64,000 bases of DNA from Candidatus Omnitrophota bacterium. Its GTDB lineage: Bacteria > Omnitrophota > Gorgyraeia > Zapsychrales > Zapsychraceae. Below the pieces are notes generated by a model. That model searched no databases. It saw only the letters and a program-made list of their open reading frames with translations, and was not told the origin of the DNA. The stretch spans positions 128,068 to 192,067 of the forward strand of contig JACKFK010000004.1 of NCBI GenBank assembly GCA_020632515.1. The letters run 5' to 3'. A program made the position numbers and the translations under genes. Shown piece after piece: positions 10,834 through 64,000 of the stretch. How positions within the stretch are numbered: position 1 is the first letter of the stretch; every line of letters begins with the position of its first letter.

Positions 10834-11997
10834 ATGAATATGCCTATAGAAAACTTTATAAAATTTGTATTTTGGTTAGCGTTTTTTTTCGTAGGCTACG
10901 CGTATATTTTATATCCATTTTTATTAATTGTTATTGATAACCTGGCGCCCAAGAAAGATTTTCAACAAAGCGATGAAGCTTTATCAGTTGCTATTCTGGT
11001 AGCTGCCCATAATGAAGAAAAAGTTATTGCGAATAAAATTAAAAATTGTTTAGCGTTAGATTATCCGATGGAATTTTTACAAATTGTGATCGCCTCAGAT
11101 GGATCAGATGACAAGACTAATGAAATTGTGCGAAAACATCAAAGTAAAAATGTGATCCTGATGGATTATCCTCAGCGTCAAGGAAAAATTAATGTGCTGA
11201 ATCAAACGATTCCAAATATTCAAAGCGAGATTGTGGTCTTTAGTGATGCTAACACGCTTTTTCATCATGACGCGGTTAAAAATCTGGTAAGGCATTTTGC
11301 CGATAAAAGAATTGGGTGTGTTTGCGGTGGATTGCATTTTATCAATGCGGATGGGAGTCATACTGCGGATTTAGAAGGGTTTTATTGGCGATATGAGACA
11401 TTTATGAAAAATATCGAAGGTCGACGGGGATCATTGCTAGGTGCTAATGGCGGAATTTACGCTATTCGAAAAACACTTTATGAGCCGTGTCTAGAAGATA
11501 CCATTATCGATGATTTTATGATCCCGATGAAAATCTTAGAAAAGGGATTTAAAGTTATTTACGACCCAAGTGCTAGCGCAAAAGAAGAATCTGCACATAA
11601 AATTGTTCAGGAAAAACAACGACGTATTCGTATTGGTGCCGGAGATTTTCAAGCCTTAACCAGGTTGTCGCATATGCTTAATCCTGTTTTAGGGTTCTCG
11701 GCTTTGGCTTTTTGGTCACATAAGGTTTTACGATGGTTGGCGCCATTCTTTTTGATTACGATATTTTTGACAAATATCCTTTTATTAAAAGATCCTATTT
11801 ACATTTTTATTTTTCTAGGACAATGTCTTTTTTATTTGTCAGCGTTTTTTGGACAACTGCTTAGCTGGGCGGGTATCAAAGTAAAGTTTTTTAATTTATG
11901 CTATTACTTTGTATCAATGAATTTGGCGTTATTATTAGGATTTGTTCGGTTTATTTCTGGTGAACAAGCCGCGACATGGAATAGAACGGAACGATAA
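10834..11997 (+). CDS. Membrane-embedded family 2 glycosyltransferase with synthase-like architecture
   Basis: N-terminal TM helix; 'AILVAAHNEE', 'ASDGSDD', 'FSDAN' (DxD position); 'QEKQRRIRIG' at the position of the QxxRW motif; 3-4 C-terminal TM helices. The layout resembles PgaC/IcaA/BcsA-type synthases. Confidence 0.7.
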   Translation: MNMPIENFIKFVFWLAFFFVGYAYILYPFLLIVIDNLAPKKDFQQSDEALSVAILVAAHNEEKVIANKIKNCLALDYPMEFLQIVIASDGSDDKTNEIVRKHQSKNVILMDYPQRQGKINVLNQTIPNIQSEIVVFSDANTLFHHDAVKNLVRHFADKRIGCVCGGLHFINADGSHTADLEGFYWRYETFMKNIEGRRGSLLGANGGIYAIRKTLYEPCLEDTIIDDFMIPMKILEKGFKVIYDPSASAKEESAHKIVQEKQRRIRIGAGDFQALTRLSHMLNPVLGFSALAFWSHKVLRWLAPFFLITIFLTNILLLKDPIYIFIFLGQCLFYLSAFFGQLLSWAGIKVKFFNLCYYFVSMNLALLLGFVRFISGEQAATWNRTER

Positions 11998-11998
11998 A

Positions 11999-13093
11999 AT
12001 GGCGAAGAATATAAATCGATGGATTGGCAGTTATCTTAAGCAGGAATTAAAGAAAGTTTTTAATACAAAGCGACATCACAAAAAAGTTCATGTTATGTTT
12101 TCGTGTGTGGATCATTATGAGCCCGACTGGCATGACGCTGATGAGAAAACGCAGCTGGAACGTGTACAGCGTTGGGTTGAAAAATATCCTGCATTAGCAA
12201 AAAAGCATAAAGATGCGGATGGATGTCATCCACGGCATACTTTCTTTTATCCTGCGGAAGTTTATAATTCTGTGCATTTAGATTTATTGGCCAAGATTTG
12301 TAAACAAGGTTTTGCGGAAGTAGAAGTTCATTTGCATCATGATAATGATACGGAAGAAACATTAAGAATAAAATTAGAGAAAGCAAAGAAAGATTTTAGT
12401 CAGCATGGATTGTTAAGTCGGCGGAAACTATCAGGACAGATTCGCTTTGGATTTATTCATGGAAATTGGGCGCTTAATAATTCTCGTAAAGACGGCTGTT
12501 GGTGTGGTGTTAATGACGAAGCGCGTATTTTAGCGGATTGCGGATGCTACGCGGATTTTACTTATCCTTCAGCGCCGAGTGAAACACAGCCGAAGATTAT
12601 TAATCGGATTTATTACACGCGGTCGCATCCTTTGAAAGCAAAAACGCATAATTATGGTGTTGACGTAAAAACGGGCCGGCATACTAAAGCGCATTTGCTT
12701 ATGGTGCAGGGGCCGCTAACATTTAATTGGACAAAACGTAAAAAAGGAATTTTTCCCAGGATTGAAAATGGCGATATCACCGGGGCTAATCCCCCCACTA
12801 AAGATCGTGTTGATTTATGGATCAAACAGTATATTAGTGTAAAAGGAAAACCTGATTGGATATTTGTCAAAGTGTACACGCATGGTGCTCCGGAGAAGAA
12901 CGCGCATACCTTATTAGGAAATCCTATGGATGAAATGTTTTCTTATTTGGAAGAAAAATATAATGACGGCATGAATTTTGCTCTTCATTATGTCAGCGCG
13001 CGTGAGATGTTTAATATTATTAAAGCTGCTGAAGCCGGAGAACAAGGCCTGCCCGGGGAATATCGGGATTATATATTAGAAAAAAATATTTAG
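11999..13093 (+). CDS. Conserved hypothetical; His/Asp-rich, possibly a divergent metal-dependent polysaccharide deacetylase/esterase
   Basis: Motifs 'SCVDHYEPDW', 'VEVHLHHDND', 'FIHGNWALNN'. Starts 1 nt after the GT2 stop (start moved from 11942 to ATG 11999). The functional call is based on motif shape and context only. Confidence 0.35.
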   Translation: MAKNINRWIGSYLKQELKKVFNTKRHHKKVHVMFSCVDHYEPDWHDADEKTQLERVQRWVEKYPALAKKHKDADGCHPRHTFFYPAEVYNSVHLDLLAKICKQGFAEVEVHLHHDNDTEETLRIKLEKAKKDFSQHGLLSRRKLSGQIRFGFIHGNWALNNSRKDGCWCGVNDEARILADCGCYADFTYPSAPSETQPKIINRIYYTRSHPLKAKTHNYGVDVKTGRHTKAHLLMVQGPLTFNWTKRKKGIFPRIENGDITGANPPTKDRVDLWIKQYISVKGKPDWIFVKVYTHGAPEKNAHTLLGNPMDEMFSYLEEKYNDGMNFALHYVSAREMFNIIKAAEAGEQGLPGEYRDYILEKNI

Positions 13094-13116: not shown

Positions 13117-14223
13117 ATGGACAGAAAAATTGATTTTGATGTGCCAAATATATCAAATGTTGAAAAAGAGTATATTTTAAAGGCATTGGATAGCCGGTTT
13201 GTTTCAACAATCGGACCACATTTAAATGAATTTGAAGAGAAATTTACGCGTTATTTAAAATGTAAAAAATCAGCAGCCACGCAAAGCGGAACCGCGGCTT
13301 TGCATATTTCTCTTTATGAATTAGGAATCGGCCCGGGGGATGAGGTGATTGTGCCGGTTACAACATTTATCGCTTCAATTAATCCATTGCTTTATGTCGG
13401 CGCAAAGCCGGTTTTTGTGGATGTTGATGAAGAAACGTGGAATATGTTGCCGGATCAAATTGAGCAAGCTATTACAGCGAAAACCAAGGCGATTATTCCA
13501 GTGCATCTTTATGGGAATCCTTGTGACATGAACGCGATTATGAAGATCGCAAAAAAACATAATTTATTCGTGATTGAAGACGCTACAGAAAGTTTAGGCG
13601 CGCATATTGACGGCCGGTTTACTGGTACTTTTGGGGATATGGGGTGTTTTAGCTTCAGCGGCAATAAAACGATCACTTCCGGAGACGGCGGCATGGTGGT
13701 TGGCAACAATCATAAGCAGATGGAACATATTAAATATTTGATTAATCAAGCGAAAGACGCGACAGGAGGATATTTTCATTCAGAAGTAGGTTTTAAATAT
13801 GGGATGTCTAATTTGGAAGCCGCATTAGGTTTGGCACAATTCAGCCGGCTGCAAGAATTTTTGGATAAGAAAAAAGAATTTAGTGAAATTTATAAAGAAG
13901 AGTTAAGCGACGTTGCCGGTGTCAAGTTTCAAAAACTTTATGATAAGGCTGTCAGTTCCTGGTGGTTGACGTGTATTACAGTTGATCGGGCAAATCTCCA
14001 GCTTACAGATATCCAGGAGGCGCTGATGAAAAAAGGAATTCCAACAAAACGTTTTTTTGTGCCGATTGTGGAATTTCCACCGTATAAGAATCATCAAAAG
14101 GAAGGTGCTTTTGATAACGCGTATAAAATTTATCATCGAGGGTTATGTCTGCCAAGTACAACCGTGAATTCCCTTGATGATACGCGGTATATTGGCAGAA
14201 CCATTAAAGAATTATTGACATAG
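13117..14223 (+). CDS. DegT/DnrJ/EryC1/StrS-family PLP-dependent sugar aminotransferase
   Basis: 'SGTAALHISL', 'VIEDATESLGA', 'SFSGNKTITSGDGG' (PLP-lysine region); 368 aa. Confidence 0.85.
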   Translation: MDRKIDFDVPNISNVEKEYILKALDSRFVSTIGPHLNEFEEKFTRYLKCKKSAATQSGTAALHISLYELGIGPGDEVIVPVTTFIASINPLLYVGAKPVFVDVDEETWNMLPDQIEQAITAKTKAIIPVHLYGNPCDMNAIMKIAKKHNLFVIEDATESLGAHIDGRFTGTFGDMGCFSFSGNKTITSGDGGMVVGNNHKQMEHIKYLINQAKDATGGYFHSEVGFKYGMSNLEAALGLAQFSRLQEFLDKKKEFSEIYKEELSDVAGVKFQKLYDKAVSSWWLTCITVDRANLQLTDIQEALMKKGIPTKRFFVPIVEFPPYKNHQKEGAFDNAYKIYHRGLCLPSTTVNSLDDTRYIGRTIKELLT

Positions 14224-16860: not shown

Positions 16861-17685
16861 ATGGCATTTATCACGAAAATAAAAGATTTTAAAAAGGAAA
16901 TCGCTGCGTTTTTAATTATGCTTGCCGCGTATTTCCCTACACTTATCTGGATGTGGGATCGTTGGTGGTCAAAGGATTCCTATTATACGCATGGTATTTT
17001 GGTGCCAATTGTTAGCGGATTTTTGGTTTGGCAATTGAAGGATGATTTAGCCAAAATTAAACGCAAAGAATCGGCCTGGGCGATCAGATTAATTGTTATC
17101 GGTTTAGGGGTCCATTTATTCAGTTCTCTTTTCAGGGTTTATTTTTCTTCGGGGTTCTCAATGATTCTCGTGCTGATGGGGTTGATTTTATTTTTCTTCG
17201 GTGGAGAATTTCTGAAGAGAATTATTTTTCCTGTATTATTCTTGCTCTTTATGATTCCTATTCCTCTAGTAGCCATTGCCACAATTAGTTTTAAACTTAA
17301 AATTCTTGCCGCTGAAATCGCAACTGTTGTTTTAAATAATATGCGGATTCCCGCGTTGCGTGAAGGTAGCGTGATTCGTATGCGCGACGCGTATGTGATT
17401 GTCGACGATGTCTGCAGTGGGTTGCGGTCATTAATCGCGTTAACGGCATTAGGCAGTGTCTTTGCCTATTGGATGAAAGATAAAGCTTATAAACGAATAT
17501 TGCTGTTTTTATCCACAATACCTATCGCTATTATTACTAATGTTTGCCGGGTAATATTGTTATGCTGTATCAGTGAAATTTGGGGGCCGAAATACGCGAC
17601 CGGATTTATTCACGATCTTTCCGGATTTATGGTATTTGCCTTAGCGTTTATTTTATTGTTTGTTGTAGGAAAGTTAATTGAATGA
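16861..17685 (+). CDS. Exosortase (EpsH/Xrt family) transpeptidase
   Basis: About 8 TM helices. Carries the family's three signature sites: 'VDDVCSGLRSL' (Cys), 'ITNVCRVILL' (Arg) and 'FIHDLSGF' (His). N-terminal 'WW...SYYTHG'. Confidence 0.85.
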   Translation: MAFITKIKDFKKEIAAFLIMLAAYFPTLIWMWDRWWSKDSYYTHGILVPIVSGFLVWQLKDDLAKIKRKESAWAIRLIVIGLGVHLFSSLFRVYFSSGFSMILVLMGLILFFFGGEFLKRIIFPVLFLLFMIPIPLVAIATISFKLKILAAEIATVVLNNMRIPALREGSVIRMRDAYVIVDDVCSGLRSLIALTALGSVFAYWMKDKAYKRILLFLSTIPIAIITNVCRVILLCCISEIWGPKYATGFIHDLSGFMVFALAFILLFVVGKLIE

Positions 17686-18320
17686 AAAAAGAGAATATCA
17701 GATATTTTTTTATTATTGCTATTTTAATTGTTTCATGTATAATTTCCTGGAATCTATATTTTAAGATTTATCTTCAGGAGGATACGGTCAATATTCACCA
17801 ATTCCCGAAGACATTTGGAGTATGGGAATCCGAGGAATTGCCGATCACAGAAGATGAATATGCTCTTTTAGAAACCCGAAATGCTTTCACCAGACGATAT
17901 TTTACCCAAGATGGTAAGGAAGTTTATATTTTTATCGTGTATTCCCAGCATAATCGCAAGGTTTCGCACCCGCCTGAGGTTTGCTATCTTGGCAATGGGG
18001 TTAGCATTATCAAAAGTGAAATGGAACGGCTTGATGGGCCGAAAGAATATAGTTTATTAAAAACCAATAAATTACTACTTGAAAAGGGCGATTTACGTCA
18101 AGTAGCTTATTATTGGTTTAAAGTTGGTCATTCATTTACAGCGAATTATTGGAAGCAACAGGGACTAATTGCCCTTAAAACGCTGTTAGGAAAACCAGCG
18201 AGTAGTGCCTTGATTAGAGTGTCGGCGTCTGTTAAAGACAGTGCAACGGCTAATGCGGAGCAAGATATGAAGGATTTCATTCAAATCATGATTCCTTTGC
18301 TTTTTAAATACCTCCCTTAA
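17682..18320 (+). CDS. EpsI-family exosortase-associated protein
   Basis: Single N-terminal TM helix, then 'FPKTFGVWESEE...', 'VYIFIVYSQHNRKVSHPPEVCYLGNG'; matches the EpsI family pattern. ATGA overlap with the exosortase stop indicates translational coupling. Confidence 0.7.
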   Translation: MKKENIRYFFIIAILIVSCIISWNLYFKIYLQEDTVNIHQFPKTFGVWESEELPITEDEYALLETRNAFTRRYFTQDGKEVYIFIVYSQHNRKVSHPPEVCYLGNGVSIIKSEMERLDGPKEYSLLKTNKLLLEKGDLRQVAYYWFKVGHSFTANYWKQQGLIALKTLLGKPASSALIRVSASVKDSATANAEQDMKDFIQIMIPLLFKYLP

Positions 18321-18451
18321 AGCGTTAACAAATACGACATAAGCATTGTAAATGTATCCAAATGATTAATTAGGATAAAGCTCCTTATTTTCATCAGATG
18401 GCTCTGCGTTTTGATGTGGTGGAATGGGCGGAAAGAATGTTCATTTTATCC

Positions 18452-18483
18452 ATCATAATGTTTAATTTTATCAACATTATGAT
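18452..18483 (+). promoter_or_regulatory. Perfect 11-bp inverted repeat (ATCATAATGTT-N10-AACATTATGAT); candidate enhancer-binding-protein site (UAS)
   Basis: Read directly from the sequence. Centred about 139 bp upstream of the -24 GG of the sigma-54 promoter at 18605, with very AT-rich DNA in between. Confidence 0.4.
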
Positions 18484-18604
18484 TCCGGAAATAGAGCAGA
18501 GAAGGATATGCTTTTTTTGTAAAAGAAAAATATTTTTAAGTATTTGATAATAAAAGAATTACGAAAAAATTAAAAAGAAAGATAATAGAGTGGTTTTCAA
18601 GATT

Positions 18605-18620
18605 TGGCACGAATTTTGCT
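18605..18620 (+). promoter_or_regulatory. Sigma-54 (RpoN) -24/-12 promoter: TGGCAC-gaatt-TTGCT
   Basis: 11/11 match to the TGGCAC-N5-TTGCW consensus with correct GG-N10-GC spacing. Lies at the 3' end of a 314-bp intergenic gap, just upstream of ATG 18635. Confidence 0.55.
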
Positions 18621-18634
18621 CTAAGAGTCTATAT

Positions 18635-19492
18635 ATGTTAAAACCGAGTTTAAAAAATCAGAAATCAGCAAAAATTATCCTAAGTTCTTTTATTGTAGGG
18701 TTTTATACGCTTTGTGTGGCGTCCGCGTGGGCAACAGTAACCTTTGTGAAGCCTCAAGATGTTACCCATCAAGTGGAAATTGGAAAGAAGTCAGATATTC
18801 CGATGAATGTATCAATGGAAACCAAGGCTTTCGCGCCAGAACCAACGTCTTTAGCACTTTTTGGGGGGGGATTTATTGGCATGATCATGAGTTTTATTCG
18901 TAAAACTTATGCGATTATTAAAAGGCTGTTTGATTTTGTAGCGAGTTTAATTGGCTTTATTATTTTATTGCCTCTTTTTGCGGCTGTAACGTTATTAGTA
19001 AAGTTAACTTCCAAAGGGCCGATTCTTTATTCTCAAATAAGGGTAGGAAAAGATGGCAGTCTATTTCGCATCTTTAAATTTCGTACTATGAAGGTGGACG
19101 CGGAAAAAGAAACCGGACCAGTTTGGGCGGCGGAAAATGATAATCGGCTGACTTCAATCGGAAAGTTTTTGCGAAAAACACATTTGGATGAGATTCCACA
19201 ATTATTTAATGTCCTTAAAGGGGAAATGAGTATTGTTGGGCCTAGACCAGAGCGGCCTGTTTTTGTGGATAAATTTAAAGCTACAATTCCAAGTTATGAA
19301 AAGCGTTTAATGGTTAAGCCTGGAATTACAGGGTTAGCGCAAGTATGGCACAGCTATGATGAAACGATTGAAGATGTAAAGAAGAAATTAAAGTATGATC
19401 TGCTTTATATTAAGAAATTTGGAATTTGGGCAGATTTAGGGATTTTCTTAAGAACATTTCGCGTTGTTGTTACAGGTGAAGGCGCACGTTAA
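18635..19492 (+). CDS. Phosphoglycosyl (undecaprenyl-phosphate sugar) transferase of the small PglC/WbaP-C-terminal type, with an N-terminal extension that is a signal peptide plus a PEP-CTERM-like sorting motif
   Basis: PGT core: 'KRLFDFVASLIGFIILLPLF', 'KGPILYSQIRVGKDG', 'FKFRTM', 'LDEIPQLFNVLKGEMSIVGPRPERP'. The extension has 'IILSSFIVGFYTLCVASAWA' (signal-peptide-like), then 'PEPTSLALFGGGFIGMIMSFIRK' at nt 18836-18904. The start is ambiguous: GTG 18590 (track) or ATG 18635. Confidence 0.8.
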   Translation: MLKPSLKNQKSAKIILSSFIVGFYTLCVASAWATVTFVKPQDVTHQVEIGKKSDIPMNVSMETKAFAPEPTSLALFGGGFIGMIMSFIRKTYAIIKRLFDFVASLIGFIILLPLFAAVTLLVKLTSKGPILYSQIRVGKDGSLFRIFKFRTMKVDAEKETGPVWAAENDNRLTSIGKFLRKTHLDEIPQLFNVLKGEMSIVGPRPERPVFVDKFKATIPSYEKRLMVKPGITGLAQVWHSYDETIEDVKKKLKYDLLYIKKFGIWADLGIFLRTFRVVVTGEGAR

Positions 19493-19538: not shown

Positions 19539-19808
19539 ATGGTTAAGAAAATTAAAGATTACGCATATAATGCGATGCTTATCGCACTCGTTCCATTGCT
19601 AACAGGTTGTAATGGTGGCGGAGGTGGTTCTACTTCAGGACTAGGCGGTTTATTTGCTTCTTTCGGAGGCGGAGACGGTTCTGGTGGACCTGGCGTTTTA
19701 GGGTCAGCCGGCGATCTTGCCAGCATCAATAACCCTGAGCCAGCTAGTTTATTGCTTATGGGTAGTGGTATGGCCGCATTAGCTTATTACAAAAATAGAA
19801 AAAAATAA
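19539..19808 (+). CDS. 89-aa glycine-rich PEP-CTERM protein with a lipoprotein signal peptide
   Basis: Strong SD 'AAAGGAGG' at 19522-19529. Lipobox 'LLTGC' (Cys24). Gly/Ser-rich core 'NGGGGGSTSGLGGLFASFGGGDGSGGPG'. C-terminal 'NPEPASLLLMGSGMAALAYYKNRKK' is a canonical PEP-CTERM signal. Start moved from the track's 19464. Confidence 0.75.
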   Translation: MVKKIKDYAYNAMLIALVPLLTGCNGGGGGSTSGLGGLFASFGGGDGSGGPGVLGSAGDLASINNPEPASLLLMGSGMAALAYYKNRKK

Positions 19809-20009: not shown

Positions 20010-20519
20010 TCAATCTTCCATCTTACGGATAAAATATGTGCAGCTTGAAATCATCAGGATGGCCGCGCCTAGATAGAGCATTTCCAATGGCGCGCTAAAG
20101 TGTGATGAGAGGATGGTTTTAAAGAAATACACGATTAAGACCATTACAATAACTTTTAGAAGTTTATTCTTTAATCCATCGAGGGTGGTAATTTCTAAGA
20201 TGTTAATCTCAGTATCTTGCCTGGCAGGATCAATCTTGGAAATAAATAATTCATACACGCCAAAGCTGAAAATCAATAGAACAATTCCAATTAAATATAA
20301 ATCAACCGCACCGATGATATGTATAACTAAAGAGGTATAATCGGCTTTGTTGGTGATGGTGCTGAAAAAGTCTTTGATCGCCATAAATATTTGGATACTA
20401 CCGGCGACAAAAAGTGAGAGAGCAGAAAATAAAGAAAAAATCACAGCTAAGAAAGTGATCAACCTTGATTTCCATAATATAATTTCAAAAATGTGTTCAA
20501 ACGGATTTTGTTTTGACAT
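20010..20519 (-). CDS. YqhA-family (UPF0114) inner-membrane protein
   Basis: Pattern 'W.SRL...', 'GAVDLYLIGIVLLIFSFGVYELFISKID', '...LDGLKNKLLKVIV' matches the YqhA family; 169 aa. Confidence 0.65.
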   Translation of the reverse strand: MSKQNPFEHIFEIILWKSRLITFLAVIFSLFSALSLFVAGSIQIFMAIKDFFSTITNKADYTSLVIHIIGAVDLYLIGIVLLIFSFGVYELFISKIDPARQDTEINILEITTLDGLKNKLLKVIVMVLIVYFFKTILSSHFSAPLEMLYLGAAILMISSCTYFIRKMED

Positions 20520-54018: not shown

Positions 54019-54296
54019 CCCTCCCTAAATAGGACAAACCTGGACATTTTACATTCATTTTTTTCTTCAAAATGGGAAGCGCTTTCATTGGAGATTTTTT
54101 TTTGTTAGAACTTGTTGATATTATGGTAGTTGTATAATTGTGAGCATTTGACCAATTTCTAAAATAATCAGCCAGCGGAATCGTATTGGAGCGAGAAATC
54201 TTATATACTTAGAGAAATCGGTAAAATCGCATGAATGCGTGGATGATCTTTATATATATCTTTAATAATAGTAGATAGTAAGGAAATTGGAAGTGT

Positions 54297-55484
54297 ATGT
54301 TAGCCAAACCTAGTCCCAAAAAGAATATCCTGCTCATTGAGGATGATGATTCAGTCGTTCAGATGTTAGCAATGCTGCTTGAAACCAGGGGGTATAACGT
54401 CAAAGCGGTTGCGACAGGTCAAGAAGCTTTGGATAAGATCACAAATGGTGTGGATATTATTTTACTTGATTTAACCCTACCCGATTTTGATGGCTTAGAT
54501 ATTTGCCGAAAATTTAAAGATAATGAATCCATTTGTCATATCCCAATTATTATTTTAAGCGCCAAGATGTTGCCGCAGGCGGTGGTTGACGCTCTTTATT
54601 TAGGCGCAGATGATTATTTAGGCAAACCATTTGACTATGAAGAATTAATCGCCAGGATCGAGGCGGTAACGCGCCGCAGCAAAGGGTATCAAAATGGGAG
54701 CTTTATGAATAGTGGTGAAAGTGATGTGATTGTGGAGTTACGGCAGATTATAAATGATGGAAAGGTTGTTCCTTTTTATCAGCCGATTTTTCAAATCGAA
54801 CCGTTTCAATTATATGGTTTTGAAGCGCTTTGTCGGCCAGATAGCAAAAGCATTCTGATGAATCCTGAGATTTTGTTTAAAGCCGCGATACAGTTTGGTG
54901 TTTATCAGGAATTGGAAATGTTATCTTGGAAATCCGCATTAATTAACTCGCAACAATACCTTAATGGCCATAAGTTGTTTTTAAACTGTAATCCTTATTT
55001 TGTAGAAAGTCCGAAGTTCACAGAGATTCGAAATTTATTCGTTGAACAAAACGTCAATATTGACAATATTATTTTAGAAATTACTGAACGTTCGGCTATG
55101 TCACATGTAGATTTATTTTACGAACAATTAAAACGATATCGCCAAGCCGGTTTCAAATTTGCTGTTGATGATGTCGGTGGTGGTTTTGCCAGTCTGGAAT
55201 CAATTGTTAAAACAAAACCGGAGGTTTTAAAAATCGATAGGCATATTATTGAAGGCATTCATGAAGATGAATATAAGCAAAGTGTGGTTCGTTTTATTAT
55301 TTCTTTTTGTAAGGAAAATAACATTTTTTCAATTGCGGAAGGTTTGGAAACTAAACAAGATTTGCAGATGGTCAAGGAATTAGGGGTTGACGCGGTGCAG
55401 GGGTATTATCTTTCTCGGCCTATGGCGACAGTGAATATGCAGGAAGTGTTCAAAACACGGGAATTGATTGAAGCCATTAAATAA
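54297..55484 (+). CDS. Response-regulator receiver + EAL domain protein (c-di-GMP phosphodiesterase)
   Basis: Receiver: 'ILLIEDDD', 'IILLDLTLPDFDG', 'KP'. EAL domain: 'FEALCRP', 'LNCNP', 'LEITE', 'AVDDVGGGFASL', 'KIDR', 'IAEGLET', 'QGYYLSRP'. Confidence 0.85.
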   Translation: MLAKPSPKKNILLIEDDDSVVQMLAMLLETRGYNVKAVATGQEALDKITNGVDIILLDLTLPDFDGLDICRKFKDNESICHIPIIILSAKMLPQAVVDALYLGADDYLGKPFDYEELIARIEAVTRRSKGYQNGSFMNSGESDVIVELRQIINDGKVVPFYQPIFQIEPFQLYGFEALCRPDSKSILMNPEILFKAAIQFGVYQELEMLSWKSALINSQQYLNGHKLFLNCNPYFVESPKFTEIRNLFVEQNVNIDNIILEITERSAMSHVDLFYEQLKRYRQAGFKFAVDDVGGGFASLESIVKTKPEVLKIDRHIIEGIHEDEYKQSVVRFIISFCKENNIFSIAEGLETKQDLQMVKELGVDAVQGYYLSRPMATVNMQEVFKTRELIEAIK

Positions 55485-55650
55485 GAATTAAATCCATTTA
55501 ATACGGTCCAACTCATTTTTATAATCTATTCTAAGTGTTTATCAATAATTCTATATTTTGAAAAAGTTCGCGATTGATTATGGAAATAGTGTCATATTGG
55601 AATTTTTTAGAAAAAACCGGTTCCCCTGCAGGTAGGAAATCAGTATAATA

Positions 55651-56523
55651 TTGGCTATGTCTAAACATAATGCGGAAAAACGATTATTTCCTCTATTAAT
55701 TACCGCGGTTAATACCATTTTTTGGCATCCGGTCATATTTTTCCCTTTTTTATTAACCGCATTCATTCAGTTTTTTATTTTGGAAATACTTTATTTTTCT
55801 CCGCGAGAACCGTTGAATGTTTTTTTTGGGCCGATCATCAGCAAAATATGGTCTCCTGAATATCTTCATTATCCATTAAATTTGATTTTGCTGCCAAAAC
55901 TATTTCAATACCTTCAATATCCTGTTTTTATTTTGCTGAGCAGCTATTTGGTGAGTGTGTCTATTGTCATTATTAAAAATATTAATGAAGACAAATCAAT
56001 TCATCTAAAACCTTTATTTAAACAAACATTTTCAATGTACGTCCATATTGTTGTATCAGCTTTATTATCCTTTTGTTTGTATATCTGTTTAATGTATTTT
56101 TTTGATATGGTTATTGCGCGGGCCATGGAAATTCGTTCTCAGTCAGGTAAATTTTTTATTTTAAAACGGTTAATTTTAGAAGGGGCACCTTATTTTTATC
56201 TGTTTTTTAGTGTTTTGATTACCACCTTGTTTGCTTATGTGTTTCCAATGATTGCGATTGAACGCAAAAAAGTATTTCATGCGATTTGGGAAAATTTAAA
56301 GTTATTAAAAGGGTCGTTTTTCTTTACTTTTTTTGTTGTATTGATTCCATCGCTTTTTATTATACCCATTTTAATATTGCGCACAACCGTGAGCATTGAT
56401 GGCGCTTTTCCTGAAATAAGCGTTTGGATTCTCGTTTTGAGTATATGTGTTTTATTGTTTATTGATGCGGTTGTTTATACAGCGTTAACGCTTTTTTATT
56501 TAATGTTAAGAGAAAAACAATGA
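55651..56523 (+). CDS. Polytopic membrane protein, unknown function
   Basis: About 7 hydrophobic segments, no motif recognised. TTG 55651 or ATG 55657 start. ATGA overlap with the next gene. Confidence 0.35.
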   Translation: MAMSKHNAEKRLFPLLITAVNTIFWHPVIFFPFLLTAFIQFFILEILYFSPREPLNVFFGPIISKIWSPEYLHYPLNLILLPKLFQYLQYPVFILLSSYLVSVSIVIIKNINEDKSIHLKPLFKQTFSMYVHIVVSALLSFCLYICLMYFFDMVIARAMEIRSQSGKFFILKRLILEGAPYFYLFFSVLITTLFAYVFPMIAIERKKVFHAIWENLKLLKGSFFFTFFVVLIPSLFIIPILILRTTVSIDGAFPEISVWILVLSICVLLFIDAVVYTALTLFYLMLREKQ

Positions 56524-57410
56524 AGAAATCAATTATATTATCGTTGATCATTTTATTATTTACTTTTGTGGTGTTAAGTTTTCTCAGTCGTAATGGGGAA
56601 TATGCCGCCCAGCGAGATTTATGGGGGATTAATTTAAAATTAAAGCAGGCTAGTAAAGATCCCAATAATATGCCGAAAAATGTGTTTAAAGAGATTATGG
56701 ATGATTATGATCAATTTATGATAAAGCATCCTAACTCCAGAATGCGTCCCTACGCGCATCTTATTTCCGGGCGTGTTTATATGCTGCAAAGAAAATTCGA
56801 ACAAGCCAGGCAGGAATTTGAAACAATATTAGAGGAATATCCAAAAGAAACCGCGGCTAATATTCAGGCCTTAGCGGAAATCGGGCGAACTTATTTAAAA
56901 GAAGATAATGGTCCGGCAATTGTGAACACCTATGAAAGAATCTTAGCAAAATATCCTTTAACGGAATTAGGATTAAAGGTGCCGTTATTGAGAGCCGAAT
57001 TTTATCAAAGACAGAACGATGAAACGAAAACCCAGCAAAGTTATCAGAATGCGGCCGATCATTATGAGGAGATTATTAAGCAGAATCCAGATTCTTTGAT
57101 TGAGTACCAGGCTTTAAAGTATTTAGGACAAAGCTCGTTGGTTTTGGAGAATTGGGAAAAAGTGGTGGATTCTTATGGTGAATTATTAATTAAATATCCT
57201 TATCCAAAATATTTAACTGTTTACGAATCGGATAAAATTATTAAAATGATTACCACAATATCTATAACTAAACTTAAGAAATATGATCCAGCAAAGATGA
57301 TTTTTTTGCGGTTTATCGAAAGGCATCCCAAACACCCTTTTAATGAAACTTTTTTTGAAATGATGAAAAGTTTTGAGTTTCTTAAGGAAGAAACGAAAGA
57401 TATAGAATAA
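56520..57410 (+). CDS. Membrane-anchored TPR-repeat protein
   Basis: N-terminal TM helix; repeated 34-aa helical-pair pattern ('A...F..I...YP......A...IG..Y'). Confidence 0.55.
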   Translation: MKKSIILSLIILLFTFVVLSFLSRNGEYAAQRDLWGINLKLKQASKDPNNMPKNVFKEIMDDYDQFMIKHPNSRMRPYAHLISGRVYMLQRKFEQARQEFETILEEYPKETAANIQALAEIGRTYLKEDNGPAIVNTYERILAKYPLTELGLKVPLLRAEFYQRQNDETKTQQSYQNAADHYEEIIKQNPDSLIEYQALKYLGQSSLVLENWEKVVDSYGELLIKYPYPKYLTVYESDKIIKMITTISITKLKKYDPAKMIFLRFIERHPKHPFNETFFEMMKSFEFLKEETKDIE

Positions 57411-57412
57411 TT

Positions 57413-58705
57413 ATGAATGAAGAACAGAAAAAATCTATTACTGAATTTTCACAGGGAGAATTGTTTGAGCGGGTCAATGAAATTTGCGCAGGTGTTAACC
57501 AAGCCTTAGATGAAAAAGAGCTGTTGGAATTTTCCCTTAAGGAAATCATGAGTCTTTACCATGCCAGCCGCGGATCTATTTTTTTATTGGATGAAAAGGG
57601 TGAAAACTTAATTTTAGTATCGTCACAAGGAATGAAAGTGGATGAACAAAACCGAATTACAAAGCGTATGGGCCAGGGAATTGTTGGACAAGTGGCGCAA
57701 AAGAAAGAACCGTTTGTGGTCGATGATATCAGCCAGGATCAAAGGTTTAATAATTTTAAGGCGCGCGGCAGTTACAAAACACCTTCATTTATCTGCGCGC
57801 CGCTGCTTTTTAAAGATACGCTGCTTGGCGTAATTAATATTACGGACAAGACTAATAATACGCGTTTTCGAATTGAAGAATTGCAGATGTTGGATTTTTT
57901 GACTAGTCAAATCGCGCTCAATTATCGTCGGATTGGGTTATATAATAAATTTAAGATGATGGTTCAAGAAACAATGGATTTAAAGGATAAGCTAGGGCAG
58001 ACACATCAGGAAACAAGTAAATTAAAGAAGCAAATTATTAATCAGGAAAAACTCGCGTCCATTGGAAAACTTGCCGGTGGAATTGCGCATGAATTTAATA
58101 ATCCCTTAGATGGCGTAATGCGTTATACTAATTTATGTTTAGAACATACGAAAGAAGACGATGTAGTTCGAGGATATTTGTTGGAAATCAAGCAAGGATT
58201 AAATCGAATGGCCAATATTGTGAAAAATTTACTTGCCTGCTCCCGTAATGAGACTCACAATATGACAGAAAAAGTTTCAGTCAAAGATATTGTTGAGCAT
58301 GTTGTGTATGTAACCCGGTCAGAAATCAATTTAAAAAATATTAGTATCCGACAAGAGATTCAGAATAACATACCGTTAATTCAGGATTTAGGTATCGCAA
58401 GAATCTTAAGTAATCTTTTACGTAATGCTATTGATGCGATGAAAAATGGCGGTGAAATTGTGATCAATGCGCAAAGCGACGGGCAACACTTATATTTAGA
58501 TGTTACAGATACAGGTGAAGGTATGGCCAGTGAGGATATTGAAAAGATTTTTGAACCCTTTTATACTACTAAAGATATTGATAAGGGGTGTGGTTTGGGG
58601 TTAACCGTAGTAAGTGAAATTGTGAAAAGTTATCGTGGAAAGATTTCAGTCATGAGTGAGCCGCGCAAAGGAACGACTTTCTCTATTAATCTTCCAATCC
58701 AATAG
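57413..58705 (+). CDS. Soluble GAF-domain sensor histidine kinase
   Basis: GAF region ('GSIFLLDE', 'GIVGQVA....P..V.D...D.RF', 'LGVINI'). H-box 'GIAHEFNNPL', N-box 'LLRNAIDAM', G1 'DTGEGM', G2 'GCGLGL'. Confidence 0.85.
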   Translation: MNEEQKKSITEFSQGELFERVNEICAGVNQALDEKELLEFSLKEIMSLYHASRGSIFLLDEKGENLILVSSQGMKVDEQNRITKRMGQGIVGQVAQKKEPFVVDDISQDQRFNNFKARGSYKTPSFICAPLLFKDTLLGVINITDKTNNTRFRIEELQMLDFLTSQIALNYRRIGLYNKFKMMVQETMDLKDKLGQTHQETSKLKKQIINQEKLASIGKLAGGIAHEFNNPLDGVMRYTNLCLEHTKEDDVVRGYLLEIKQGLNRMANIVKNLLACSRNETHNMTEKVSVKDIVEHVVYVTRSEINLKNISIRQEIQNNIPLIQDLGIARILSNLLRNAIDAMKNGGEIVINAQSDGQHLYLDVTDTGEGMASEDIEKIFEPFYTTKDIDKGCGLGLTVVSEIVKSYRGKISVMSEPRKGTTFSINLPIQ

Positions 58706-58715
58706 AAGAAAAAGT

Positions 58716-60116
58716 ATGGAAACTAATAAAAATTATCAGATTCTTGTTGTGGATGATGAGCCGTTAATCCGCGAATCTTTGTATGAAATATTACGGATTG
58801 AAGGTTACCGTGTTCAAATGGCGTCGACAGGCGAATCGGCGTTGGAAAAATTGAAAGAAGATAATTTTGATATTATCCTTACAGATTTAAAACTGCCCAA
58901 GATGAGTGGATTGGATCTTTTACGTAAAGTAAAGGAGTATAAATGGGACACGGAATTAATTCTTATTACAGGGTATGGTTCCATTGAATCGGCTGTTGAA
59001 GCGATGAAAGAGGGGGCATACGATTATATAACTAAACCTATTAATGATGGTGAAATTAAGATTATCATGACAAAAATTCTCGAAAAGAGATCCATCATAA
59101 AAGAGAATAAAGATCTCAAAGCCATCATTGCCAAGGAACAACGGCAGTCTTTTTGTGATTTAATCGGCGCTAGTCCATCGATGCAGGATGTTTATAGGGT
59201 CATAGATTCCGTCGCCAGTAGCAACGCGACGATTTTGATTAGTGGTGAAAGTGGTACAGGAAAGTCGATGGTAGCCAAGGCGATTCATCAGAGTGATAAA
59301 AATCGTTGTGGAAATCCTTTTATAGAAGTTAGTTGTGGCGCACTTTCGGAAACGCTTTTGGAAAGTGAACTTTTTGGACACGTGAAGGGTGCGTTTACCG
59401 GAGCAATTAAAGATAAGGAAGGTCGGTTTGAGGCAGCCGGTAACGGAACTGTTTTTCTTGATGAGATTGACGCCTTCTCTCCGAACTTACAGGTGAAATT
59501 GTTGCGTGTTTTACAAGACGGTGTTTATGAACGTGTGGGGGATAATGTCAGTCGAAAAACAAAGGCGAGGATTATTGTGGCCACGAATCAAATTCTAACG
59601 GAGTTAGTGGAAAGTGGCGATTTCCGAGAAGATTTATACTATCGGATCAATGTTATTTCTATTCGCATGCCGTCGTTACGCGAACGTAAAGACGATATTG
59701 AAATGATTACAGAATATTTTGTAAAGAAATATGCTGCGGCCAATAATAAGAACATTACCGGTATCTCTAATGGAGTAAAAGATTTGTTTTTGCAATACAG
59801 CTGGCCTGGGAATATCCGTGAACTTGAAAATGCCATTGAAGGCGCGGTCATTATGTCTAAAGGCGTGGTTATTGAGAAAGATGATTTTCCTAATGCGGAT
59901 CGATTCTTGGCAAATAAACACACAGCAAAGAATGTGAATTCTTCGGAGCAGCCTTTAAAGAAGGTTGTGGAGCAGCCTGAGAAAGAACATATTTTATCTG
60001 TATTGCAGCAGTGCAATTGGAACCGTAATAAAGCCGCGTTGGTGTTAGGTATCAATCGGACAACGTTGTACAATAAAATGAAGAAATACGATATTTTCGA
60101 TAACGAACCACAATAA
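58716..60116 (+). CDS. Sigma-54-dependent (NtrC-family) response regulator / bacterial enhancer-binding protein
   Basis: Receiver 'ILVVDDEP...ILTDLKLPKMSG'. AAA+ domain 'GESGTGKS' Walker A, 'GAFTGA' sigma-54 contact loop, 'FLDEI' Walker B. C-terminal Fis-type HTH 'NRNKAALVLGINRTTLYNKMKKY'. Start moved to ATG 58716. Confidence 0.9.
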   Translation: METNKNYQILVVDDEPLIRESLYEILRIEGYRVQMASTGESALEKLKEDNFDIILTDLKLPKMSGLDLLRKVKEYKWDTELILITGYGSIESAVEAMKEGAYDYITKPINDGEIKIIMTKILEKRSIIKENKDLKAIIAKEQRQSFCDLIGASPSMQDVYRVIDSVASSNATILISGESGTGKSMVAKAIHQSDKNRCGNPFIEVSCGALSETLLESELFGHVKGAFTGAIKDKEGRFEAAGNGTVFLDEIDAFSPNLQVKLLRVLQDGVYERVGDNVSRKTKARIIVATNQILTELVESGDFREDLYYRINVISIRMPSLRERKDDIEMITEYFVKKYAAANNKNITGISNGVKDLFLQYSWPGNIRELENAIEGAVIMSKGVVIEKDDFPNADRFLANKHTAKNVNSSEQPLKKVVEQPEKEHILSVLQQCNWNRNKAALVLGINRTTLYNKMKKYDIFDNEPQ

Positions 60117-60119
60117 CCT

Positions 60120-61145
60120 ATGCACGATTATTCGATTAAAAAAATAGCCTGGCAGATTTTTAATAAAGAAAAATGGTGGGATGTTTTATCTAAATTTATT
60201 TATGTCCTTCGGATGAATATTTTTATTGTGGATAAGTATGGTTATGTCATTCTTCCCCCGGATGAAACGAAATTTGGCGGCCGATTTTATACAGAAAGAA
60301 CTTTGGGCGCGAAACTTTTGCATAATGTTGACGATCCAATCGCGCATTTTACAAAGCATGGTAATTTTTACGAATATGTTGACCGTTTTGATCTTCATGT
60401 TTTTGCTATCCCTGTTATTATCCAACAAGATCAGTTAGTCGCTTATATGATGGTCGGGCCTGTTGCTGTTGCTAAGAAAATGACTAATGAACAATACCGC
60501 GATATGGCAGCTAACGTTGGAGTTGATGCCGATGTTCTGTTGGAATGTATTTATGAAATTCGGACGGTGTCGCACCTTATGATGAATTCAATTCTGGAAT
60601 TGTTAAGTGAAATCATTAAAGATAATATTGAATTGAATAGTAAGATACAGGATTTAGATAAAATGAAAGGCGAAAAAAACGATCCTTTTGTTCAAGAGTT
60701 TAAGGATTTTGCCAAAGACATTTATTCAACGGTACGCTTAGACGAGTTGTTAATTACACTTTTGGATATAGCCTTGTCTATGACTAATACAGAATGCGGA
60801 TCAATTATGGTGATTGACGAGGTTTCCGCGGAAATGTCGATTAAAGCTGCGCGCGGGTTGGATAGTACTGTTATCAGTTCTTCCCGGGTCAAGATCGGGG
60901 AGAGTGTGGCTGGGATCGCTTTTCGCGAGAATAAAGAATTTATTATTAACGGCACACCGATTCACGATGATTTAAGTCCGCATTTATCCCGACCGGAAAT
61001 TCGTAACGCGTTGGTTATGCCGTTGACATCAAAAGATAAAGTTTTTGGCGTTTTGAATTTACACACAAAAACATCCGGCGATACAATACGTGAGAATTTA
61101 GATAACCTTCGCCATCTGACAAAATTATTAGCCTCTGCGTTTTAA
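60120..61145 (+). CDS. PocR-like sensory domain + GAF domain protein (no output domain)
   Basis: N-terminal 'IFIVDKYGYVI....', 'HVFAIPVIIQQDQLVAYMMVGPV' resembles PocR ligand-binding domains. C-terminal 'CGSIMVIDE', 'GESVAGIAFRE', 'VFGVLNL' is GAF-like. Confidence 0.5.
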   Translation: MHDYSIKKIAWQIFNKEKWWDVLSKFIYVLRMNIFIVDKYGYVILPPDETKFGGRFYTERTLGAKLLHNVDDPIAHFTKHGNFYEYVDRFDLHVFAIPVIIQQDQLVAYMMVGPVAVAKKMTNEQYRDMAANVGVDADVLLECIYEIRTVSHLMMNSILELLSEIIKDNIELNSKIQDLDKMKGEKNDPFVQEFKDFAKDIYSTVRLDELLITLLDIALSMTNTECGSIMVIDEVSAEMSIKAARGLDSTVISSSRVKIGESVAGIAFRENKEFIINGTPIHDDLSPHLSRPEIRNALVMPLTSKDKVFGVLNLHTKTSGDTIRENLDNLRHLTKLLASAF

Positions 61146-63577: not shown

Positions 63578-63606
63578 TTGACAAATATGGGTTCTTGTCC
63601 TAGAAT
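63578..63606 (+). promoter_or_regulatory. Sigma-70-like promoter P2 (TTGACA-N17-TAGAAT), a near-duplicate of P1
   Basis: ATTGACAAATATgggttcTTGTCCTAGAAT, followed by further TGTCCTAG / TTGTCTCA repeats. Confidence 0.45.
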
Positions 63607-63750
63607 GTACGATTATGTCCTAGTTTGTCTCATTGATAAAAAAAAGACAAAATGGTATACTTGCAATTCGTAGATAGATTTTCATAAGTTGTTTATATCA
63701 ATAAAGATAGGTTTTAATCTAGAATCAATTCAGAAAGAATGGGGGAGAAA

Positions 63751-64000
63751 ATGGGAAGAAATCGAGGTTTGATTGGGACAACGGGTGCAATATTTTTAGT
63801 GTGTATGATGAGCACTCTTAGTTTTGCAGAGTCAAATTGGGATTTTGATATTCAAGGGTCACTTATGGAACAATATGATGATAATATTACAGAAGTTAAT
63901 TCCAATGAAATTGACGATTTTATTACCCGTGCCAATATTGGTTTAGGATTAAATAATGAGGGAAAAACCTATTCTTTGGAATTAGGCGCAAGTATTACGC
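63751..64000 (+). CDS. N-terminal fragment (runs off the right edge) of a secreted protein, probably an outer-membrane beta-barrel
   Basis: SD 'GGGGGAG' at 63741-63747. Signal peptide 'AIFLVCMMSTLSFAES'. Then alternating-polarity strands with 'EQYDDNIT' and 'ANIGLGLNNEGKTYSLELGASIT', typical of EPS-locus beta-barrels. Absent from the ORF track because there is no stop within the window. Confidence 0.5.
   Translation, partial: MGRNRGLIGTTGAIFLVCMMSTLSFAESNWDFDIQGSLMEQYDDNITEVNSNEIDDFITRANIGLGLNNEGKTYSLELGASIT

Follow-up and report, generated by a model that had tools for sequence, protein, structure and literature searches.

The closest described systems regulate PEP-CTERM genes in Proteobacteria. 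In the part of Haft et al. 2006 cited here, a sigma-54 motif together with a second element, motif 1, is reported before 99 of 167 proteobacterial PEP-CTERM genes, motif 1 being 17 nucleotides (nt) long, ending in TTTACA and lying ~63 nt 5' of the sigma-54 motif (PMC1569441). The same part describes these motifs as found in Proteobacteria only, where they are co-distributed with PrsK, PrsR and PrsT, and presents the regulators and motifs used outside the Proteobacteria as still to be found (PMC1569441). For pepA in Aquincola, dependence on RpoN (RpoN1) and a mapped start site have been reported (PMC9850573). Here, we describe a stretch of 64,000 nt from a Candidatus Omnitrophota bacterium (assembly GCA_020632515.1, contig JACKFK010000004.1), called the window below, in which positions 18438-18634 are likely the regulatory region of an operon for a sugar transferase and a PEP-CTERM protein within an exosortase locus, built from a sigma-54 promoter, an upstream dyad and an NtrC-family activator encoded elsewhere in the window. 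As in the Prs system of Haft et al., a sigma-54 site and an upstream motif stand before PEP-CTERM genes in an exosortase/EpsI exopolysaccharide locus, and a two-component kinase and an NtrC-type activator occur with one or more TPR proteins. The locus works like the Prs system but is not a member of it, and it extends the sigma-54/PEP-CTERM scheme to Omnitrophota with different parts.

The sigma-54 -24/-12 element, TGGCACGAATTTTGCT (TGGCAC-gaatt-TTGCT), lies on the plus strand at 18605-18620 and is preceded by a T at 18604. The initial annotation had called it a perfect match to the consensus and had expected about 0.06 such matches per window by chance, and both statements held: neither strand of the window has another perfect match to TGGCAC-N5-TTGCW, and dinucleotide shuffles contained a mean of 0.05 perfect matches per window, with at least one match in 5 of 100 shuffles. 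Its conservation was assessed in relatives drawn from a genome collection, from metagenomes (using an alignment of the N-terminus specific to the family) and from the nearest homologues in databases, whose proteins are 40-71% identical to those of the window and which provided 19 distinct related loci with upstream DNA. A -24/-12 element stands 5' of the orthologous gene in every one of these 19 loci (19.9-28.8 bits), with a family consensus of TTGGCAYG-N4-TTGCT, and the window element is among the best of the family (28.3 bits versus 28.8 bits in locus L090). With a weight matrix built from the relatives only, the site at 18605 scored 26.0 of a possible 30.4 bits and the runner-up on the two strands of the window 15.1 bits. 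In a control set of 74 non-orthologous loci (871 kb, both strands), sites of at least 18 bits occurred only twice. Since the element has been kept in non-coding DNA that is otherwise unalignable, this conservation is strong evidence of function, and we consider it very likely that the promoter at 18605-18620 is functional. Furthermore, the distance between promoter and gene is identical in L001-L004, four assemblies of this organism obtained independently, which shows that the layout is not an assembly artefact; a stretch identical to the window is also present in GCA_020430025.1, an Omnitrophota metagenome-assembled genome.

Upstream of the promoter, a perfect inverted repeat, ATCATAATGTT-N10-AACATTATGAT, occupies 18452-18462 and 18473-18483, with its centre 139 base pairs (bp) 5' of the GG of the -24 element, the position given when it was first put forward as a putative upstream activating sequence. 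Within it, the core dyad TGTTTAATTTTATCAACA (TGTT-N10-AACA, 18459-18476) is conserved in the relatives. The regular expression TGTY-N10-RACA placed a dyad 139-213 bp 5' of the GG in 14 of the 15 loci whose upstream DNA is long enough (background rate, 0.016 per 300 nt). Since this expression had been derived from the same data, the region from -300 to -125 was also submitted to prior-free Gibbs sampling, which returned rTGTTGA-N6-TCAACAy in 18 of 18 loci, the window (18458-18477) included, with an information content of 17.45 bits versus 10.8-11.4 bits for shuffled input; these dyads lie 140-190 bp 5' of the promoter, in many cases as a pair 21 bp apart. A dyad matrix built from the relatives only ranked 18459 first in the window (18.3 bits; next site, 13.0 bits). 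The idea that the palindrome is the activator site is supported for its core, which coincides with the dyad conserved in all 18 loci; of the 11 nt in each arm, relatives keep only the inner TGTT...AACA (4-6 nt per arm).

The dyad centres cluster at -146 to -151 and at -168 to -172 from the GG, and five loci (L006, L011, L092, L104 and L107) carry tandem dyads 20-21 bp apart. In the window, a degenerate dyad, TGTT-N10-ATCA (18438-18455), lies 21 bp 5' of the main one; it is weak alone (the dyad matrix gives it 7.7 bits and tenth place in the window) and is part of a 21-nt direct repeat. Both window dyads, the strong one at -139 and the degenerate one at -160, stand one helical turn nearer the promoter than those of the relatives, and the 10.5-bp phasing of the dyads reaches modest significance (Rayleigh p about 0.03). 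The spacer between dyad and promoter (18484-18604) contains several A- and T-tracts and is proposed to bend for looping. It had been described as extremely AT-rich; AT-rich it is (76.9% A+T versus 62.5% in the window), although the adverb overstates the difference. On the minus strand, the spacer also fits the IHF core consensus WATCAANNNNTTR at one place, 18537-18549. A similar core at a comparable place and on the same strand occurs in only 3 of 17 loci (the window, L010 and L008; background, 0.013 per 120 nt), a hint of an IHF site in the spacer.

The initial annotation had named the product of 58716-60116 as the candidate activator, and the gene neighbourhood in nine related loci supports this choice. 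According to Pfam, this plus-strand gene encodes an NtrC-family enhancer-binding protein with a receiver, a sigma-54-interaction AAA+ domain (Sigma54_activat, 218 bits, GAFTGA loop intact) and a Fis-type helix-turn-helix (HTH). It belongs to a plus-strand cassette that begins with a protein of 290 amino acids without a Pfam or NCBIfam family match (55651-56523) and a TPR protein of 296 amino acids (56520-57410). These are followed by a cytoplasmic histidine kinase of GAF-HisKA-HATPase architecture (57413-58705), proposed as the sensor partner, by the activator and, after it, by a PocR-GAF sensory protein (60120-61145). Orthologues of the cassette lie 0.2-2.5 kb 3' of the operon and on the same strand in L007, L008, L009, L010, L011, L088, L096, L106 and L107. 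The kinase is syntenic with the activator in seven of these nine adjacent-cassette loci (L088 ends before that position), and the PocR-GAF orthologue has the same position in L106 and L107 and precedes the activator in L010, where it replaces the kinase. This conserved linkage between regulator and operon supports the product of 58716-60116 as the activator, without amounting to proof of binding. Among the activator orthologues, the GAFTGA loop, the Walker A motif and the receiver Asp57 are invariant, and the HTH, NWNRNKAAxxLG(V/I)NRTTLYNKMKKY, with its recognition helix NRTTLYNKMKKY, is kept down to 45% overall identity. The invariance of this helix runs parallel to the conservation of the dyad, and on balance we lean toward binding of this activator to the dyad at 18459-18476, a pairing predicted from the sequences.

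It is important to consider that the regulators are not those of the Prs system, using the NCBIfam curated cut-offs by which family membership was judged throughout, as domains were by Pfam. The proposal that the pair is PrsR and PrsK did not survive: the activator scored 392.2 bits with TIGR02915 (cut-off, 502.6) and higher, 464.8 bits, with the AtoC model, and the kinase reached 99.6 bits with TIGR02916 (cut-off, 300), over the kinase core only. The N-terminal GAF domain of the kinase leaves no room for a membrane domain, so the protein is soluble, unlike the membrane-bound PrsK. Likewise, the TPR protein scored 24.1 bits with TIGR02917, the model for the lipoprotein PrsT (cut-off, 312.2). 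In the relatives, the order sugar transferase-kinase-activator parallels the order epsB2-prsK-prsR of the Prs system. However, the regulated first gene here is the priming sugar transferase itself, and the predicted leader is ~4 nt, in contrast to a published minimum of 23 nt. The upstream element also differs from motif 1, as far as the text description of the latter in the cited part of Haft et al. allows comparison: it is an 18-bp dyad that lies ~113-165 bp, and in the window 128 bp, 5' of the -24/-12 element.

Other sigma-54 systems share single features with the locus. At glnAp2 and similar bacterial enhancers, dyads for an activator such as NtrC stand more than 100 bp 5' of the -24/-12 element; they frequently occur in pairs facing the same side of the helix, and the DNA that separates them from the promoter is bendable or bound by IHF. 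The locus resembles this enhancer in its Fis-type HTH activator and in candidate dyad sites more than 100 bp upstream. It differs from it in the dyad itself, TGT-N12-ACA here and TGCACC-N5-GGTGCA there, and in having no nitrogen-regulation genes. The likeness to AtoS/AtoC resides in the full-length receiver, AAA+ and HTH_8 architecture, for which AtoC is the best NCBIfam model at the score given above; however, this score is under the equivalog cut-off of 714, the kinase reaches 187.7 against a cut-off of 646, and the targets are unrelated. The upstream activating sequence of NifA is TGT-N10-ACA, and here, too, a TGT...ACA dyad is found 5' of a sigma-54 promoter. Its spacing is nevertheless N12 in every locus, and the activator begins with a receiver, whereas NifA has a GAF domain at its N-terminus.

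From these features, we infer the following mechanism. Sigma-54 RNA polymerase would bind TGGCAC-N5-TTGCT (18605-18620) as a closed complex, and the GAF histidine kinase (57413-58705), on receiving its putative signal, would phosphorylate the NtrC-family activator (58716-60116). The activator would bind the dyad at 18459-18476, perhaps also the weak dyad 21 bp upstream, and would then oligomerize. Looping of the AT-rich spacer would let the activator meet the polymerase, ATP hydrolysis would open the promoter, and transcription would begin near 18631.

Several observations weigh against this mechanism, and they are best considered together with the alternatives that they favour. The strongest upstream motif of the family between -270 and -30 is an array of TGTC direct repeats, yTGTCmTAG-N2-TGTCm, with a 10-bp period and 2-4 repeats. 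Of the 18 loci searched, 17 being relatives, 16 have it at a fixed distance, about -111 to -124, between dyad and promoter; it is absent from the window promoter and from L088. Should the activator in fact bind this array, its site would have been lost from the window promoter. In addition, the dyad consensus holds a TTGA-N6-TCAA core, possibly recognizable by a factor of the CRP/FNR type, and a search of all six frames of the window and of all fetched loci with a regular expression for the RpoN box gave no match. The cassette of the window is also 36 kb from the operon, behind housekeeping genes; an adjacent cassette is likewise missing in L006.

In the first alternative, the promoter is real and the dyad serves another factor, perhaps a dimeric regulator such as one of the CRP/FNR type, while the enhancer-binding protein would ordinarily use the TGTC array that is lost here. 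An activator acting from solution or a different activator would then drive the window promoter, or its activity would be weak. Besides the prominence of the array and the core within the dyad, this alternative is favoured by two other intergenic TGTC arrays in the window, at 63595-63632 (plus strand) and 54030-54047 (minus strand), neither of which has a -24/-12 element; TGTC hits of at least 15 bits number three in the window, versus none in 20 simulations, the third (47614) being inside a coding region. PilR, another NtrC-family activator, recognizes (C/G)TGTC repeats in tandem. With their TGTC repeats of 10-bp period, the relatives, unlike the window promoter, resemble the PilR sites upstream of pilA; no pilin gene accompanies them, a literature search on PilR TGTC repeats yielded nothing usable, and we take this resemblance as a lead only. 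On the contrary, the dyad is the sole upstream element present in all 18 loci, and tandem dyads two helical turns apart look like known enhancers. Sigma-54 promoters are silent unless an activator is present, activators with a Fis-type HTH usually bind dyads as dimers, and within the conserved cassette the activator alone has a recognized DNA-binding domain. Taken with these points, another factor at the dyad appears unlikely, and we retain the activator at 58716-60116 as its preferred ligand.

A further difficulty for the proposed mechanism concerns the leader. ATG 18635 begins 14 nt after the 16-mer of the -24/-12 element, and with the C of its GC taken as -12, transcription is predicted to start at ~18631. 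This gives a leader of ~4 nt, in agreement with the 4-5 nt anticipated by the initial annotation; it excludes any Shine-Dalgarno sequence, including a weak AAGAG upstream, and contrasts with the 31-75 nt found in most relatives. A search for relatives closer than the nearest homologue (71% identity), by which the loss of the leader might be traced, found none. A Shine-Dalgarno-like core is present in 25 of 53 window genes versus 17% of random positions, so about half of the genes do without one and such initiation is common here, though a 4-nt leader remains unusual. A leader this short would fit a promoter that is a decaying relic, its cassette moved 36 kb away by a rearrangement and its leader and TGTC array then deleted, with expression coming mainly from exosortase-epsI read-through. 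The missing array and the lost or degenerate second dyad also fit, no terminator-like site follows epsI, and the AAGAG, 8 nt before the ATG, would be included only in a read-through transcript. However, without selection, the promoter element and the palindrome would be expected to decay, yet the former is a perfect consensus scoring close to the family maximum and the latter is perfect over 11 bp per arm. Moreover, L010 likewise has an ATG 13 nt after the motif. We regard a relic as quite improbable.

The predicted leader depends on the start codon, for which the initial annotation had left GTG 18590 open. This codon was rejected. In an alignment of five orthologues, the shared sequence begins at ATG 18635 and reads as a signal peptide ending in AWA|T; in the relatives, stop codons interrupt the frame upstream of it; and public gene calls also start at ATG 18635. 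Consequently, the -24/-12 motif is intergenic. A chance or intragenic motif with a GTG 18590 start, combined with a palindrome acting as an RNA hairpin or terminator of epsI, is therefore scarcely credible, even though the frame is open from 18554 and the palindrome RNA folds at -11.4 kcal/mol (z-score, -3.0), for the motif is conserved in the non-coding DNA of 19 loci, the palindrome has no U-tract, no terminator call and no Rfam match to suggest a terminator or structured RNA, and conservation limited to 4-6 nt per arm is what a protein-binding site would show.

The operon itself lies directly within the exosortase locus. The exosortase gene (16861-17685, plus strand) scores 179.4 with TIGR02602 (cut-off, 105.55) and 190.3 with the XrtA-specific model, under the cut-off of 208 for the latter; it is followed on the same strand by EpsI (17682-18320; TIGR02914, 98.9 versus a cut-off of 42.8). 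The first operon gene (18635-19492, plus strand) encodes a polyprenyl-phosphate glycosylphosphotransferase of 285 amino acids (TIGR03025, 310.8 versus a cut-off of 295.55; PF02397, 226.7 bits). It consists of a signal peptide, a linker of ~35 amino acids, a PEP-CTERM-like segment at residues 68-90 and a Bac_transf domain at residues 96-279. The second gene (19539-19808, plus strand), preceded by a strong Shine-Dalgarno sequence, AAAGGAGG, encodes a secreted Gly-rich protein of 89 amino acids with a C-terminal PEP-CTERM signal (PF07589, 22.2 bits; a regular expression for the C-terminal motif; a public gene call) and is probably co-transcribed with the first. A convergent gene on the minus strand (20010-20519) closes the two-gene operon. 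The earlier label of PEP-CTERM genes is thus right insofar as both match PF07589, the first at 20.8 bits against a cut-off of 20.7, but this first gene is a transferase with an internal segment, not a classical C-terminal one. The segment (APEPTSLALFGGGFIGMIMSFIRK) lies exactly 28 residues ahead of the KRxFD start of the catalytic domain. Among 117 near-full-length sugar-transferase homologues, the PEP motif is kept in 110 and stands at the same distance in 104; the priming sugar transferase may be an exosortase client or docking partner. Literature searches on PEP-CTERM combined with phosphoglycosyl transferases, and on Omnitrophota exosortase or sigma-54, found nothing usable.

The module is not limited to sugar-transferase operons. 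Between 270 and 1150 of L090, a second full module, made up of a dyad (TGTCCAAACATGTAAACA), TGTC repeats and a -24/-12 element (TTGGCACGCTATTTGCT, 449-464, 28.0 bits), precedes the gene of a classical PEP-CTERM protein of ~200 amino acids, which indicates that the module serves a PEP-CTERM regulon in Omnitrophota too. A bolder proposal, possible though doubtful, is that the module is a phylum-wide switch of the Omnitrophota exosortase regulon whose first target is itself an exosortase client, with near-leaderless translation in the window. If so, the switch would co-induce a small PEP-CTERM protein and an enzyme that is a substrate or docking partner of the exosortase, and polysaccharide priming would be physically coupled to protein sorting.

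These results fill, with a candidate system in Omnitrophota, the gap outside Proteobacteria stated in the cited part of Haft et al. 2006 (PMC1569441). The Omnitrophota, represented here only by metagenome-assembled genomes, thereby gain a set of candidate parts: a promoter consensus, a dyad and a cassette of GAF-kinase, NtrC-type activator and TPR protein. Because sigma-54 promoters depend strictly on an activator, these parts are testable in a heterologous host without culturing. Additionally, the motifs offer a way to map the exosortase regulon across metagenome-assembled genomes. The general understanding of sigma-54 control is unchanged.

Other sites in the window were recorded in the course of the searches. 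A second sigma-54-like site, CGGCATGAATTTTGCT (12967-12982, 15-16 bits), lies inside an open reading frame (ORF) at 11942-13093 (DGMNFAL), 135 nt 5' of a DegT aminotransferase gene (13117-14223); it has no upstream dyad and is probably a chance match. The TGTC array at 63595-63632 overlaps a sigma-70-like promoter, TTGACA-N17-TAGAAT, 5' of a secreted-protein gene starting at 63752, with a dyad-like site nearby at 63694-63711. The array at 54030-54047 lies 5' of a response-regulator-EAL gene of the c-di-GMP phosphodiesterase type (54297-55484), which is itself directly 5' of the regulatory cassette; between this gene and the cassette (55485-55650), neither a sigma-54 promoter nor a dyad was found. 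Genes between the operon and the cassette (19809-55650) include those for arginyl-tRNA synthetase, for M48, M16 and M3 peptidases and for a glycogen-phosphorylase-like protein. A 49-codon ORF (18398-18547) overlaps the dyads, and in L106 a similar gene of 78 codons has been called across its regulatory region (2133-2369). Conserved non-coding DNA misread as coding is the most likely explanation of both.

Finally, an ATG near the predicted transcription start is not peculiar to the window. An ATG 9-14 nt after the 16-mer occurs in 8 of 20 loci versus 2.4 expected (post hoc P about 0.001), namely, the window (18629-18637), L006, L008, L009, L010, L086, L089 and L090; in the relatives, it opens mini-ORFs of 7-21 codons or in-frame N-terminal extensions. 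In L089, the in-frame ATG is 12 nt after the motif, with a better start 48 nt after it. In two more distant relatives (L009, 5791-5895; L010, 5782-5890), the transcript would start with a conserved peptide of ~34 amino acids, MKK(M/F)I..F....(A/E)IKK(E/D)(I/L).IY..I.R(I/Y)AR, which in L009 has a small ORF of its own and in L010 is joined to the transferase as an N-terminal fusion.

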